A program made the position numbers and the translations under genes. From positions 58,991 to 122,990 of the forward strand of contig JBDLIE010000004.1 of the NCBI GenBank assembly GCA_039715015.1: a stretch of 64,000 nucleotides of DNA, given 5' to 3'. Below the pieces are notes generated by a model. That model did no database searches and was not told where the DNA came from. It was given only the letters and a program-made list of their open reading frames with translations. Source of the DNA: Thermodesulfobacteriota bacterium. Its GTDB lineage: Bacteria > Desulfobacterota > Desulfobulbia > Desulfobulbales > SURF-16. Below are positions 1,775-15,763 of the stretch, piece by piece (the stretch's first letter is position 1; each line of letters begins with the position of its first letter).

Positions 1775-3088
1775 ATGGACTATCAACAGGCCTGGGCCTA
1801 TCTCGACAATCTCCAATTTTTTAAGATCAAGCTTGGCCTGGACTCCATGTCTGAGTTCCTAGGGCGGGTGGGTAATCCTCAGGACAAGCTGCAATGTATC
1901 CATGTGGGCGGCACCAATGGCAAAGGTTCGGTCGCCATGAACCTGCTTACCCTGTTAAAGGCAGGGGGCTACAGGGTAGGTCTCTACACCTCTCCTCATC
2001 TGAGTTCGGTTCGGGAACGTTTCCGGATTAATGACGATTATATTTCAGAGGAGGATTTTGCCGCCATTGCCACAGAGATTGCCACTGTTCTTGGCGACAG
2101 TCAGATCACCTATTTTGAATTCACCACAGCCTTGGCCCTTCTGTGGTTTGCCAACCAGAAAGTTGACCTCGTTATTCTTGAGGTGGGGCTTGGTGGCCGT
2201 CTTGATGCGACGAATGTTGTCAAACCGCTGGTCTCGGTAATTACCAATGTCTCCATGGACCATGAGGCCTATCTGGGCACGACCTTGTCGGAGGTTGCCT
2301 TTGAAAAGGCCGGCATTATTAAGCCCGGAGCATCGGTGGTGAGCGGCGTTGATCAAGATGTCAGTAGGGAGGTTGTTACGGCCCGTTGTGCTGAGATGGG
2401 GGCAGAGCTTTGGATATTCGGCCGGGAATTTAGCCATGAAGATAATGGTGATGGGAGCTGGACCTATCAAGGTGTCAGTAAAAAGATATCCGGCCTCAAA
2501 TGTGGGATGCGCGGCGATTACCAGCGCGATAATTCATCCCTGGCCCTGGCTGTGTGTGAGCTTCTTGAGGGCAAAGGCTGGCCCCTTGGCGACAACGTTG
2601 TCCGGGCCCAGCTCAGCAAGGTTTATTGGCCTGGTCGCCTGGAGTATTTTTGTTTGGATGAGGAGGGGCGGCGGCTGAACGAGGAGACGCTGACAGCACG
2701 TGGCAGAAAATATTTGCTTGATGGCGCCCATAACCCTGCGGGGATGGAGAGTTTGTGCACCAGCCTGCGCAATGAATTTTCCTATAAACGCCTGATTTGT
2801 GTCTGGGCTGCCATGGCGGATAAGGATCTTGGCACCACCCTGGCTGCTATCTCCCCCTTTTGCGACATCATCATCTTTACCCGGCCTGAATCGGAGCGCT
2901 CTGCCACTCTGGAGCAATTACGTGGGGCCTTGGAGGATTTTGACGGCGAGATTTTTGAAGAGCCGCAGGTAGAGGGGGCCTTGCAGAGTGCTCAGGATCT
3001 GGCAGAGTGCGAGGATCTCATCCTGGTTGCCGGTTCCCTTTATCTGGTGGGAGCGGCCCGCAGTCAGCTGCTTGGGGAGATTGTCTGA
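1775..3088 (+). CDS. folC: Bifunctional folylpolyglutamate synthase/dihydrofolate synthase
   Basis: HVGGTNGKGS, YTSPHL, EVGLGGRLDATN, LDGAHNP, GSLYLVG. Confidence 0.96.
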   Translation: MDYQQAWAYLDNLQFFKIKLGLDSMSEFLGRVGNPQDKLQCIHVGGTNGKGSVAMNLLTLLKAGGYRVGLYTSPHLSSVRERFRINDDYISEEDFAAIATEIATVLGDSQITYFEFTTALALLWFANQKVDLVILEVGLGGRLDATNVVKPLVSVITNVSMDHEAYLGTTLSEVAFEKAGIIKPGASVVSGVDQDVSREVVTARCAEMGAELWIFGREFSHEDNGDGSWTYQGVSKKISGLKCGMRGDYQRDNSSLALAVCELLEGKGWPLGDNVVRAQLSKVYWPGRLEYFCLDEEGRRLNEETLTARGRKYLLDGAHNPAGMESLCTSLRNEFSYKRLICVWAAMADKDLGTTLAAISPFCDIIIFTRPESERSATLEQLRGALEDFDGEIFEEPQVEGALQSAQDLAECEDLILVAGSLYLVGAARSQLLGEIV

Positions 3089-3399
3089 TGACTCATTTCT
3101 ATTTTGACGGGGTGGATGAAACCATTATCCGCCAGGAACGGGACAAGGCCCGTAAACTCCGTAAAAGCGGCTGGTGGCAGAAGAAGATTGCCAGTGGTCT
3201 CTGCCATTACTGCGGTGGGCAGTTTAAGCCCAAAGAGTTGACCATGGATCATCTCACCCCCGTTGCCAGGGGAGGTGCGAGCAATAAGGGGAATCTGGTT
3301 GCCGCCTGCAAAGAGTGTAATAATAAAAAGAAGAACCTGCTGCCCTATGAATGGGATGAGTACATGGAGACGATCCGGCAGGGCAGCGAAAAAGAGTAG
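3088..3399 (+). CDS. Small zinc-binding HNH endonuclease
   Basis: CHYC...DHLTPVARGG...NLVAACKECNNKK; TGATG overlap with folC stop. Confidence 0.88.
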   Translation: MTHFYFDGVDETIIRQERDKARKLRKSGWWQKKIASGLCHYCGGQFKPKELTMDHLTPVARGGASNKGNLVAACKECNNKKKNLLPYEWDEYMETIRQGSEKE

Positions 3400-5010: not shown

Positions 5011-5346
5011 ATGTTAAAGATTACCGATATGGCTATTGAGAATTTAAAGTCCTATCTGGAGCAGAATAGTATTGATTCTGCCATCCGGATAGCGATGATG
5101 CAGGGCGGCTGAGCTGGCCCTTCATTGGGATTGGCTCTGGATGAGCCAAAAGATAATGACGAAGTTGTAGATCAGGATGGCCTTAAGTTTCTTGTTGAAA
5201 AAGGCCTGCTGGTCACCTGCGGCGAGATTCTCGTTGATTTTGTCGAGGCTGGACCCCGTTCTGGATTTTCCATTACCTCAAAGATCCCCTTGGCAACCGG
5301 TGGTGGTTGCAGCAGCGGTTCTTGCAGCAGTGGCTCTTGTGGTTAA
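5011..5346 (+). CDS. IscA/HesB-like selenoprotein, 111 aa, in-frame TGA at codon 34 (5110-5112) read as Sec
   Basis: GGAGG SD, ATG 5011; MLKITDMAIENLKSYLEQNSIDSAIRIAMMQGG-U-AGPSLGLALDEPKDND continues in frame into ORF 5125..5346; U sits at the conserved HesB GGC-x-G Cys; hairpin 3' of UGA. Confidence 0.9.
5131..5149 (+). promoter_or_regulatory. Candidate bacterial SECIS element of the HesB-like gene
   Basis: TTGGCTC-TGGAT-GAGCCAA, 7-bp stem with G-containing loop about 26 nt after the UGA. Confidence 0.7.
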
Positions 5347-5372: not shown

Positions 5373-5413
5373 AAAAAAACCCCCGGTCTGTTTTCAGACC
5401 GGGGGTTTTTTTT
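5373..5413. terminator. Bidirectional rho-independent terminator
   Basis: A7-CCCCCGGTCTG-TTTT-CAGACCGGGGG-T8 between two convergent genes. Confidence 0.9.
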
Positions 5414-5630
5414 ATGGTTTATCTTGGTTGGCCAACTCTTGGCAGATTCTATCCTGCCATTGTTCAATCTGCTCTCTGTAAAGTTTGGCACCAGACTCCA
5501 TCCCGCAGGACCTGCAGGTTATGGTGGCATGTGCTCAACGCCCCTTTAGAATTGCCTGTCCTCCGCAGAAGAGGCATTGTAAAGAGTTTTCCAGATCGGC
5601 TGTTGTTCGGTTGTTTTTTGGGCTGCTCAT
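5412..5630 (-). CDS. Small dual-CxxC putative selenoprotein, 72 aa, in-frame TGA at codon 32 (5535-5537)
   Basis: MSSPKNNRTTADLENSLQCLFCGGQAILKGR-U-AHATITCRSCGMESGAKLYREQIEQWQDRICQELANQDKP*; the frame stays open past TGA, supplies a second CxxC and stops at the terminator; SECIS-like hairpin follows. Confidence 0.78.
5498..5524 (-). promoter_or_regulatory. Candidate SECIS element of the dual-CxxC gene
   Basis: Minus strand CCAU-AA-CCUGCAG-GUC-CUGCGGG-AUGG starting 11 nt after UGA; apical GCAGGUCCUGC resembles E. coli fdhF GCAGGUCUGC. Confidence 0.7.
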
Positions 5631-5687
5631 AGGGGGGATAGTAGAATAAAAAAGGCTCTTTGGCGAAGTCCGGGAAATGTTGCTTAT

Positions 5688-5752
5688 CAAACACAAAGGC
5701 ACAAAGGCACAGAGGTCTTCTTCATAATAATCCCTCTGTGCCTTTGTGTTTG
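5688..5752. repeat. REP-like palindrome made of 8-nt units
   Basis: CAAA-CACAAAGG-CACAAAGG-CACAGAGG ... CCTCTGTG-CCTTTGTG-TTTG. Confidence 0.7.
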
Positions 5753-5915: not shown

Positions 5916-5993
5916 TGGGGTGAGCGATGGGACTTGAACCCACGACCTCCGGAGCCACAATCCGGGGCTACCACCAGCTGAGCTACGCCCACC
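5916..5993 (-). tRNA. tRNA-His (GTG)
   Basis: G(-1)GTGGGCG...CCGGA-TTGTGGC-TCCGG...GTGGGTTCAAGTCCCAT-CGCTCAC-C-CCA; G-1:C73 identity pair and encoded CCA. Confidence 0.95.
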
Positions 5994-6053: not shown

Positions 6054-6734
6054 TTATGGCAAGGAGAAATCGCTCTCCTGGAACTCCTTGCCGCAGTGTT
6101 TACACTTGATGGCCTTGTTCTTGACAATCTCCATACAGTCAGTGCATTCCTTCAGGAAGTTGTTTTTGAGAAGCTCGGTAATGGCCAGGTTTTTCTGGTG
6201 CTCCAGGTTGCCGTCCTTGTATTCTATGTTGCGTAGGGCATCAATACAGGAGGTGTCGTTGAGGGGCACAAGGAGGCGGCAGGCCTTCATCCTGTTTTCC
6301 AGGCTGGCCTTCTCGTCAAGAAGGATACCCATAACCGGGGTAAGATTCTTATCGGCAACACAGGTGTCAAGCTCTTCGACCCATTCTTTCTCCTGCTGAT
6401 AACGTTTGTTGGATGCGATGATTACATCTGGATCCAGGATACTGCCGGTGAAGGCCATTTTGTTACCCACCATCATCAGTTCGCCTTTTTCTTCGTTGTG
6501 CATTCGCATATAGCGATAGGAACCGACATGGCCGTATGATGCTTCAATATGGTCCCAGCCTTTAACAAAGGGTGGGCATTCATCATTCAGGCAGACGAAC
6601 ATCACCTCGGCGCCCCAGCCCAGGCCGTCGCCAATATGGAACGGCGGAGTTTCGCAGGGGGAAAGTCTGGTGTCGCAATGGGGGCAATAAAACTCCATTT
6701 CACAGTAACGTAAACAGTCGTCTGCGCTGAGCAT
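6054..6734 (-). CDS. Zinc-ribbon domain protein of unknown function
   Basis: CPHC...CLNDEC near N-terminus, CTDC...CKHC at C-terminus; GAGGAG SD. Confidence 0.75.
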   Translation of the reverse strand: MLSADDCLRYCEMEFYCPHCDTRLSPCETPPFHIGDGLGWGAEVMFVCLNDECPPFVKGWDHIEASYGHVGSYRYMRMHNEEKGELMMVGNKMAFTGSILDPDVIIASNKRYQQEKEWVEELDTCVADKNLTPVMGILLDEKASLENRMKACRLLVPLNDTSCIDALRNIEYKDGNLEHQKNLAITELLKNNFLKECTDCMEIVKNKAIKCKHCGKEFQESDFSLP

Positions 6735-13849: not shown

Positions 13850-15763
13850 ATGCGGGAGATCGTCCTTGGCACAGCCGGTCATGTTGACCATGGCAAGACA
13901 AGTCTTGTCCGGGCCCTGTCTGGCATTGAGACCGACCGTCTTAAAGAGGAAAAAAAGCGCGGAATCACCATTGAGTTGGGTTTTGCCTTCCTTGATCTGC
14001 CCTGTGGCCACCGGCTGGGAATTGTTGATGTGCCTGGCCATGAAAAGTTTGTCAAAAACATGGTGGCCGGTGCCAGCGGCATTGACCTGGTGGCCTTTGT
14101 CATTGCTGCCGATGAAGGCATTATGCCCCAAACCCGGGAGCATTTTGAGATTTGCCGCCTGCTGGGTGTTGATAAGGGGCTCATTGTTGTCACCAAAAAG
14201 GATATGGTTGAGCCTGATTGGCTGGAGCTTGTTGAAGAGGAGATTCGTGATTTTTTCAACGATACCTTTCTCGAAGAGGCGCCCCTGGTTACAGTTTCTT
14301 CAACCACGGGCGATGGTATTGATGATGTAAAGAGTGTCCTTGATTCCCTGGTGTCCCAATGTGATTTTACAGAGGCCCATGGCCCTTTTCGTCTTCCTGT
14401 GGACCGCGTTTTTGCCATGAAGGGTTTTGGCGCTGTTGTCACTGGTACTTCGATCAGTGGCCGCATCAATGTCGGTGATGAGGTGGAGATTTTTCCCCAT
14501 CATCAATATGGTAAAATTCGCGGTATTCAGAGTCATAGCCAAAGCGTTGATATGGTGGAGGCCGGCAAGAGAACCGCCATCAACGTCCAGGGTGTCGAGA
14601 AGGAGCATATCCATCGCGGCAATATGTTGGTGACGCCCGGTTGCTTGGAACCCACCTATATGCTTGATACCAGTTTTCTCTATCTCTCATCCTGTGAGAA
14701 ACCCCTGAAAAACAGGACCAGGGTGCGTGTTCACCTGGGATCTGCAGAGATCATGGGCCGGGTGGTCTTGCTCGAAGACGAAGTGTTGGCCCCAGGTGTG
14801 GAAACAAATGTCCAGATCCTGCTTGAAGAGCCCGTTGGTGTCTGGCCTGGGGATCATTATGTGGTCCGCAGCTACTCGCCGGTGGCCACCATTGGCGGTG
14901 GCGTGGTTTATTCCGTATCGCCTCGCAAGCGTCGCCGTTTCAAACCGGAAAATGAGCAGGCCTTTAAGGTCTATGGCCAGGATGACCAGGAAGAACTCTT
15001 TCTTCTTCACCTGCGGGAAAGCGGCTATAAAGGCCTGACCATGGCTGAGCTTGGTGTCAAAACCGGCATCTTTGGTAATCGTCTCCAGAAAATGCTCAAA
15101 ACACCCATCTCGGCCAGGAAGATTATGGTGATCGACTCCGAGCGTAAGCTCATGGTGAGTCAGGACCGGTTTGACGACCTGGCCCAGGCCATTACCGAGG
15201 CCCTTGCCTTGTATCATCAGGACAACCCCTTAAAAACAGGTCTTGCCAAGGAAGAGCTGCGCTCCAAGCTCTTTGGGGCTCAGGAAAACAAAATTTTTCA
15301 GGCTGTTTTAAATAATCTTCTCAAAAAAGAGGTGATTGCCTCAGAGGATTCCTTGGTTCGCATGGCCGATCATAAGGTGGTCCTTCAAGCCGATGAAAAA
15401 GAGGTGCAGGCCGATATGCTAGCCATGTACGAGAAGGCAGGTCTCACCACGCCCACCTATAAAGAGGTTCTTGCCCGCTTTGCCGACCTTTCCCCTGATT
15501 TTGTCAAGGAGATGGTCGGCGTCCTCGTCAAGGATGGGAAGCTGGTGAAGGTAAATGAGGATCTCTATTTTTATAAGGATCATCTTGGCAAACTGCAGGA
15601 TGATCTTATTGCCTTTATTAAGGCCGAAGGCGACATTGATGCCCCTCGTTTTAAAGGCCTCACCGGCCTGACCCGCAAATTCTCTATTCCGCTCCTTGAG
15701 TATTTTGATAAGGAGAAGGTGACGTTGCGGGTGGGTGATACCCGCATCCTGCGCGACAATTAA
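13850..15763 (+). CDS. selB: Selenocysteine-specific translation elongation factor
   Basis: [30 protein letters not shown]-terminal winged helix [14 protein letters not shown]. Confidence 0.97.

Follow-up and report, generated by a model that had tools for sequence, protein, structure and literature searches.

A conserved in-frame TGA most likely encodes selenocysteine in a small dual-CXXC protein gene of a Thermodesulfobacteriota bacterium

Does the TGA that ends a 31-residue reading frame in a Thermodesulfobacteriota genome terminate translation, or is it decoded as selenocysteine (Sec)? The question arises on the minus strand of a 64,000-nucleotide stretch of contig JBDLIE010000004.1 (hereafter the window, to whose positions coordinates refer unless stated otherwise). 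A frame starts there at ATG 5630-5628 and ends, under genetic code table 11, at TGA 5537-5535; past this TGA, it stays open for 40 further codons up to TAA 5414-5412. Translation through the TGA reproduces the product that had originally been predicted, i.e. a protein of 72 amino acids (5412..5630, minus strand, including the TAA stop) with the motif CxxC-x9-U-x6-CxxC. In this protein, a first CxxC knuckle (C19-L-F-C22, 5565..5576, minus strand) is followed by GGQAILKGR, by the predicted Sec at residue 32 in the motif G-R-U (TGA 5535..5537, minus strand), by AHATIT, and by a second knuckle (C39-R-S-C42, 5505..5516, minus strand). Under table 11, the gene falls into two parts, an N-terminal piece of 31 aa and a C-terminal piece that goes unannotated, and a 29-aa ORF runs from an internal ATG at 5501 within the C-terminal part. 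No Shine-Dalgarno-like sequence precedes ATG 5630, where the upstream bases are TATCCCCCCT; an ATG at the same position and a 72-aa product are present in five same-genus loci. The TAA of the read-through frame lands, as the prediction held, on a terminator. This is a bidirectional intrinsic terminator (5373..5412, serving either strand) with arms at 5373-5390 and 5395-5412 that are 18 bp long and 100% complementary, with T runs on both sides, and it is common to this gene and a convergent HesB-like selenoprotein gene.

Homologues that span the TGA had been set beforehand as a test of the prediction. Searching 61 related genomes in all six frames (the window's own and 60 relatives), we found a strong homologue (E <= 2e-10) in 41 of them, each match with one TGA inside; the next best match had E = 0.007. 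In all 41 loci read, the TGA occupies the same column, 13 residues past the first Cys and seven before the third; at one of these loci, a one-residue insertion places it 14 residues past the first Cys. Among 39 aligned full-length reads, for which we chose start-to-stop lengths of 59-104 aa, there is no variation at C19, C22, G30, the U column, C39 and C42, and conservation is at least 90% at R31, A35, Y51, I55 and W58. Within the genus, dN/dS is 0.15 over 15 codons upstream of the TGA and ~0.10 over 32 codons downstream of it. The distribution extends beyond the close relatives: an even sample of 401 genomes from the phylum yielded 49 genomes with a match, of which 45 carry the TGA and four have no stop. 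An in-frame TGA with protein conservation on both sides is one of the standard bioinformatic criteria for a selenoprotein, and this is the pattern that the family displays. Based on these comparisons, TGA 5537-5535 is an evolutionarily conserved codon that most likely encodes Sec.

The codons that replace the TGA point in the same direction. Cys is the classic partner of Sec, and an alternation between Cys codons and TGA at this column had been anticipated. Over 101 loci, which include nine groups of identical sequence, the codon is TGA in 97, TGC in three (L084, L085 and L086) and TGT in one (L071); likewise, the four genomes of the phylum survey that lack the TGA carry TGC or TGT, i.e. Cys. 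One Cys form (in genome G256) belongs to a genus of which the other five matched members carry TGA, and for two Cys forms, databases contain an identical protein (P0013, 68/68 residues; P0018, 62/62 residues). Thus, Cys-containing homologues align at the TGA column in DNA and in protein databases alike. When 1.84 billion representative proteins were searched exhaustively with a profile at a cut-off of E <= 1e-3, 55 matches were returned. Among the full-length matches that we read, eight have C at the column, two of them traced to DNA and six known from protein only, and nine have W. Many other matches are C-terminal fragments that start just past the TGA (P0019, P0020, P0022, P0026 and others).

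The W forms deserve closer attention. P0015 is identical to the translated locus L089 in 63 of 64 residues, and the sole mismatch is W against the TGA; P0011 is identical to L070 in 55 of 57 residues, with W against the TGA among the two mismatches. Because W in these two proteins coincides with TGA in near-identical DNA, they look like the output of a gene caller that used a table with TGA=W. The remaining seven of the nine W forms are known from protein only and could be real Trp forms. The possibility that the TGA itself is a mutated TGG (Trp) codon was rejected on the TGA-containing matches in 41 genomes, the codon counts at the column and the tracing of W forms to TGA.

In bacteria, SelB-GTP-Sec-tRNA(Sec) binds a hairpin on the translating mRNA and inserts Sec at the UGA instead of terminating. 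The original prediction had placed a bulged hairpin from the 11th nucleotide after the UGA, and we locate it at 5498..5524 on the minus strand (CCAU-AA-CCUGCAG-GUC-CUGCGGG-AUGG, 5' end at 5524), where folding and comparative pair counts support it as SECIS-like. Its lower stem pairs 5524-5521 with 5501-5498 and has two bulged A, while its 7-bp upper stem pairs 5518-5512 with 5508-5502; the apical loop GUC lies at 5511-5509, 23 nt past the UGA, and the hairpin as a whole extends 11-39 nt downstream of the UGA. The upper stem and loop coincide with the codons of the second CxxC knuckle. As given in the legend of Fig. 2 in the 2026 review (PMC13188914), the bSECIS criteria comprise a loop of 3-9 nt, an upper stem of at least 4 bp, a G in the first two loop positions, a loop 16-37 nt from the UGA and an energy of at most -7.5 kcal/mol; the start of the loop is also given there, in the model of Zhang & Gladyshev, as G followed by G/U. 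With -13.3 kcal/mol, the loop GUC, a 7-bp stem and a spacing of 23, the element in the window falls within all four bSECIS criteria.

Taken by itself, a 76-nt stretch of the window is no more stable when folded than shuffled versions of it (z = 0.15; a fold of equal or greater stability is reached by 101 of 200 shuffles), and the single sequence therefore proves nothing. Once relatives are compared, however, the signal for the predicted element is far beyond chance. When 41 loci are aligned without gaps over 60 columns, the seven pairs of the upper stem (280 cells) are formed in 89.3% of the cells compared to 83.2 +/- 1.0 in column shuffles, none of 500 of which reached the observed value, and controls in which the stem was slid along the alignment were paired in at most 66.4%. 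The hairpin is conserved among relatives with compensatory changes. For instance, pair 23-39 is CG in 13 rows, UA in 11 and GC in two (unpaired in 12/40), pair 24-38 is CG in 35 rows and UA in three, and pair 29-33 is CG in 20 rows and AU, GC and UG in two each (unpaired in 14/40). Three sequences have Lys or Glu in place of the Gly that follows the second CxxC, and in these the opposite Thr/Val codon is changed such that U-A pairs are kept. The loop opens with a base at a synonymous third codon position, where 40 of 41 rows have G. Since the hairpin overlaps invariant Cys codons, its conservation is in part due to the protein sequence that they encode.

Among the distinct Sec forms, 77 of 88 pass the bSECIS criteria, and the other 11 miss them on energy only (-6.3 to -7.3 kcal/mol). 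By comparison, none of the four Cys forms passes and 212 of 1500 other TGA triplets of the same loci do. The criteria as such are loose, in that 14% of random TGA triplets qualify. The Cys form L071 is informative because it keeps the protein motif and yet yields no hairpin candidate, whereas the five Sec forms retrieved from the same genus pass; the hairpin is therefore not a mere by-product of coding for CxxC. The family has two SECIS registers: the loop lies 21-24 nt past the UGA in 68 of the 88 Sec forms and 17 nt past it in 11, and in the 17-nt register a GUGU or GUGC loop sits on the Cys codon itself. A search of 5380-5660 against Rfam at E <= 10 gave sub-threshold terminator-like matches only and no SECIS family, and at gathering thresholds Rfam returned two tRNAs only.

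The genome has the machinery that such a hairpin would serve. As predicted, selB is in the window (13859..15757, plus strand; TIGR00475, 373.2 bits against a cut-off of 242.25), where it would act in trans; in genome coordinates, it lies at G000:C4:72849-74747, G000 being the window's genome. Together with selB, the genes for selA (618 bits), selD (361 bits) and tRNA-Sec (70.4 bits) are encoded in this genome, all above their cut-offs, and selD itself contains one TGA. Of the 29 ORFs in the window with a length of 250 aa or more, 11 end in TGA, and neither selA nor selB is interrupted by a stop; therefore, the genetic code is standard.

These data bear directly on the first alternative to Sec, namely that the UGA is decoded as another amino acid (Trp, Gly or Cys), by an altered code or by near-cognate read-through, and that the hairpin is a by-product of the CxxCG codons. 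This reading could draw on the nine database homologues with W at the column, on the overlap between the hairpin and invariant codons, and on the frequency with which random TGA triplets also pass the bSECIS criteria. However, at least two of the W forms are TGA in near-identical DNA, the code is standard, and the natural replacement at the column is Cys. Moreover, none of the four Cys forms, which have the same CxxC motifs, passes as a hairpin, a synonymous position in the loop is kept as G in all rows except one, and the genome has the full Sec machinery. We consider decoding as a residue other than Sec very improbable.

It is also extremely unlikely that the TGA is a real stop, with the locus being either a decayed gene or two unrelated micro-ORFs of 31 aa and, from ATG 5501, 29 aa. 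Gene calling with table 11 yields exactly these pieces, TGA is a normal stop in this organism, and databases hold C-terminal fragments called as separate proteins, P0019, P0020, P0022 and P0026 among them. A word-indexed protein search with the read-through protein likewise found no full-length homologue and nothing in the range of 39-126 aa; this null result is explained by the limit of sensitivity of that search, since the exhaustive profile search later gave its 55 matches. A pseudogene, however, would not keep a TGA in one column in 97 of 101 loci together with a downstream dN/dS of ~0.10. Between the TGA and the internal Met lie the invariant C39 and C42 and the near-invariant A35. Other members have Q, L, H, Y, I, F or A in place of the internal Met, which is therefore no conserved start, and homologues with a Cys codon run uninterrupted through the column.

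The last alternative, a Lar-type restriction-alleviation protein of prophage origin that incidentally carries Sec, is extremely improbable as well: PF14354 (Lar_restr_allev) is the best Pfam match (26.2 bits, E 9e-6, with 21 of the 39 members matching it at E <= 0.01), TIGR03655 gives E 1.2e-4 and farther matches of the family profile are Lar-like CPFCGG...WN-x-R proteins, but every score falls under the curated cut-offs (PF14354, 26.2 or 25.7 bits against 28.6; TIGR03655, 22.3 against 39.6), the W-N-x-R motif reads W-Q-D-R in the window protein, the flanks read, in which most clusters are unannotated, contain no neighbour cluster that looks phage-derived, and the gene has spread vertically through Desulfobacterota families.

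We therefore suggest that the locus is very likely a genuine 72-aa selenoprotein gene of the dual-CXXC small (seleno)protein family with SECIS-directed insertion of Sec at the UGA, a reading drawn from comparative sequence analysis. The original proposal of a small Sec-containing protein with two CxxC motifs and a SECIS element just 3' of the UGA is supported, as a prediction, by conservation and by the bSECIS criteria. In this model, the codons of the second CxxC knuckle would form a hairpin in the mRNA downstream of UGA 5537-5535. SelB-GTP-Sec-tRNA(Sec) would bind this hairpin, as in the established mechanism, and Sec would then be inserted at the UGA instead of termination. In other words, the same stretch of mRNA would encode the second knuckle and direct recoding of the UGA.

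What might such a protein do? An AlphaFold model built with a 39-row alignment has a mean pLDDT of 79 and shows a zinc-ribbon-like three-stranded sheet (residues 25-29, 36-39 and 45-47) followed by a long helix (48-69). The four invariant Cys form two knuckles, and one metal ion, Zn or Fe, is therefore presumably held between them. In the model, Sec32 is predicted to lie in the turn between the first two strands, within the near-invariant motif G-[RK]-U-x-x-A, and from the order of the strands we infer that it would be placed opposite, or away from, the knuckles. Structural comparisons gave no specific relative: in Foldseek against the PDB, the best match had E 0.22 and matches were to generic zinc ribbons (ribosomal proteins, RNA polymerase subunits and Elf1), in VIA-align wide against the PDB the best Z was 4.2 with nothing specific, and the sequence profile against the PDB reached E 0.0094 with the zinc-ribbon stretch of a phosphatase. 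The proposal that the Cys4 site is structural, and that the exposed Sec/Cys is the reactive group, acting as a redox nucleophile or as a ligand to either a metal or a partner thiol, is one that we regard on the basis of the model as evenly balanced. A Cys in the C-terminal helix, which is frequent and not universal in the family, may work with the Sec/Cys.

A more specific and rather doubtful idea, to which we give a minor share of probability, is that of a "selenol on a stick". Here, a Lar-like Cys4 ribbon would be a scaffold only, carrying one Sec, in the motif G-[RK]-U-x-x-A, at the tip of its beta-hairpin. In its cycle, this Sec would form a selenenylsulfide, either to a partner protein or to the frequent Cys of the C-terminal helix (C63 in the window protein). 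Separately, the SECIS element would have jumped its register by ~6 nt within one motif and be lost on reversion from Sec to Cys. If true, the "selenol on a stick" would be a small redox or chalcogen-relay protein of a new type in sulfate and sulfur reducers, and the register-jumping SECIS would be a compact natural case of a SECIS element co-evolving with its codons.

The genomic neighbourhood adds little to these considerations. Named neighbours in the window are tRNA-His, phosphofructokinase (PFK) and an IscA/HesB gene. Synteny with tRNA-His, a 226-aa Cys-rich ORF, the HesB-like selenoprotein gene and PFK is kept among close kin only (15-17 loci, which include duplicates of the same genomes), and we found no neighbour conserved across lineages. 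Because no neighbour is kept beyond close kin, no operon-based function can be inferred.

The suggestion that the gene may belong to the small dual-CXXC (seleno)protein group agrees with the family searches. The best and almost the only family match of the window protein is NCBIfam NF041197, "dual CXXC motif small (seleno)protein". The window protein, in which U was scored as C, covers positions 1-47 of the 53 in this model and scores 34.2 bits over the full length and 35.1 bits for the core (E ~1e-8), compared to a cut-off of 40. NF041197 is the top match for 92 of 93 distinct members at E <= 1e-5, and all 39 aligned members match it at E <= 1e-3. The cut-off of 40 bits is reached by 34 of the 93 members, including L004 (40.2) and L006 (41.0) from the same genus, and 59 fall below it. 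The window copy itself scores below the cut-off, but it is clearly homologous to members that pass. The model is centred on the R-x-U subtype, and the Cys form L086, with R-T-C, scores 84.7 bits. The window family fits the description of NF041197, namely a small protein in which a Sec or Cys column separates two CXXC motifs. The window's genome also has, on another contig, a second member, which is a Cys form of the core subtype (G000:C18:7260-7418; 68.8 bits). Similarly, a search of the protein Atlas with a natural Cys-form homologue as query returned clusters automatically named "Dual CXXC motif small (Seleno)protein" and generic zinc ribbons. On these matches, the window gene is a predicted divergent member of a selenoprotein family already described in sulfate-reducing bacteria.

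These findings matter in several respects. Table 11 cuts the gene in two, and the score against NF041197 is below the NCBIfam cut-off; therefore, model-based pipelines would probably miss the gene here and in many relatives too. In databases, the family is held as C-terminal fragments and as W forms, at least two of which are TGA, and this is a warning for the mining of protein collections. The family is common in the order to which the window's genome belongs (41/61 genomes) and present in 49/401 genomes across the phylum, where it almost always uses Sec (45/49). A conserved selenoprotein of 60-75 aa is also a tractable target for expression, labelling and knock-out. The kind of protein is already described, as OS_HP3 (2007), as protein DW (2025) and in NF041197. 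What we add to the literature is the breadth of the family and its near-exclusive use of Sec in the window's order, Cys forms in DNA that have lost the hairpin, the existence of two SECIS registers, and the W-for-TGA artefact in protein collections.

Several known systems resemble the window family in part. Lar proteins (PF14354, TIGR03655) share with it a Cys4 zinc ribbon followed by a helix that starts with a conserved aromatic residue and Trp, and a first knuckle of the form C-[PILV]-[FY]-C-G-G. They differ from it in that the window family is sub-threshold for both models, in that most Lar-like matches have no Sec/Cys at the column, and in the W-Q-D-R motif of the window protein and the lack of a phage context in the flanks read. 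The window's RNA element has the loop, stem, spacing and energy ranges of the consensus bacterial SECIS; unlike the consensus, it lies entirely on the codons of the second CxxC, and its family has two registers.

Among selenoproteins, OS_HP3 was described by Zhang & Gladyshev in 2007 (NAR; PMC1976440). In that paper, two OS_HP3 selenoproteins with a predicted SECIS are reported from Olavius symbionts, and no Cys homologue was known at the time. Like OS_HP3 as presented there, the window protein is small and has a CxxC motif on either side of a Sec/Cys column, with a SECIS located downstream; however, the core type of OS_HP3 has R-[TA]-[UC] and another C-terminal part, whereas the window protein has G-R-U, and in contrast to the absence of Cys forms in that 2007 account, the window family has four in DNA. 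According to the 2026 review (PMC13188914), OS_HP3, with the motif R-x-U, is the core of NF041197, and "Hypothetical protein DW", with the motif GxU, is placed under the same model.

Protein DW and OS_HP3 2 are among the closest known systems. The deep-Sep study (mSystems 2025; PMC12013277) lists protein DW from Desulfosarcina sp. BuS5 and "OS_HP3 2" from D. ovata, and presents DW as a selenoprotein that has Cys homologues and for which a SECIS is predicted. Their hosts are Desulfosarcina, whereas the relatives of the window copy are Desulfobulbaceae or Desulfurivibrionaceae MAGs; across the relatives, the MAG labels are Desulfobulbaceae, Desulfurivibrionaceae, Desulfatiglandales and Desulfobacterales. 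The window copy also differs from DW and OS_HP3 2 in that it scores under the NCBIfam cut-off. In the sequences of the supplement, DW and OS_HP3 2 read by eye as CIFCG...GRU...C-x-x-CGME...Y-x-DQIE-x-W. By the same comparison, the window protein is like both in its size class, in the spacing CxxC-x9-U-x6-CxxC, in G-R-U, in C-x-x-C-G-M-E and in the helix start Y-x-[DE]-Q-I-E-x-W.

The dual-CXXC gene faces a second selenoprotein gene. This gene (window 5011-5346, plus strand) belongs to the IscA/HesB family: its product scores 141.3 bits with the NF038090 IscA_HesB_Se model, whose cut-off is 85, and carries Sec in a G-G-U motif. Gene calling with the standard bacterial code (table 11) cuts it into two pieces at the in-frame TGA (5110-5112). 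The IscA/HesB gene and the dual-CXXC gene on the minus strand are convergent and have a bidirectional terminator (5373-5412) in common, and their pairing is conserved in 17 loci of close relatives, a count that takes in same-genome duplicates. On the upstream side, a long inverted repeat (5688-5752) with arms of 20 nt at 95% complementarity, or 23 nt at 87%, lies between the start of the dual-CXXC gene and the gene for tRNA-His (5916-5992, minus strand); this repeat might serve as an upstream terminator or regulatory hairpin, or represent a repeat element. Further upstream, an ORF for a Cys-rich protein of 226 aa with several CxxC pairs (6054-6734, minus strand) has no NCBIfam match and is a conserved neighbour of the dual-CXXC gene in 15 loci from relatives.

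The SECIS hairpin occurs in a second register in ten loci (L077, L079, L083, L089, L091, L092, L094, L096, L099 and L102) from small-genome families of the phylum, five of which are of the same genus. In this register, a GGUAAG/CUUACC stem carries a GUGU or GUGC loop, which falls on the third Cys codon, 17 nt downstream of the UGA compared with 22-23 nt in the usual register. The hairpin is lost in a Cys-form relative (L071) that belongs to the genus of those five.

In nine family members from public protein collections (P0003, P0004, P0005, P0009, P0011, P0015, P0016, P0021 and P0023), the Sec column is occupied by W. Two of these have near-identical counterparts in genome DNA (L070, L089) with TGA at this position, which suggests that short contigs were gene-called with a table reading TGA as W.

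The window's genome encodes a second NF041197 member (G000:C18:7260-7418, i.e. L122:1501-1659; 68.8 bits), which is of the core subtype, has Cys at the Sec column (R-A-C) and is free of internal stops. A second copy of the dual-CXXC gene is also found in a Desulfatiglandales MAG (L053, match at 3001-3108). This copy retains the TGA and both CxxC motifs; because its similarity ends after D-D-Y-R with a stop 7 codons on, it may be a decaying duplicate.

Finally, because selD of the window's genome (G000:C51:11990-12904) contains one in-frame TGA, its product is itself a selenoprotein, a situation that is already known.
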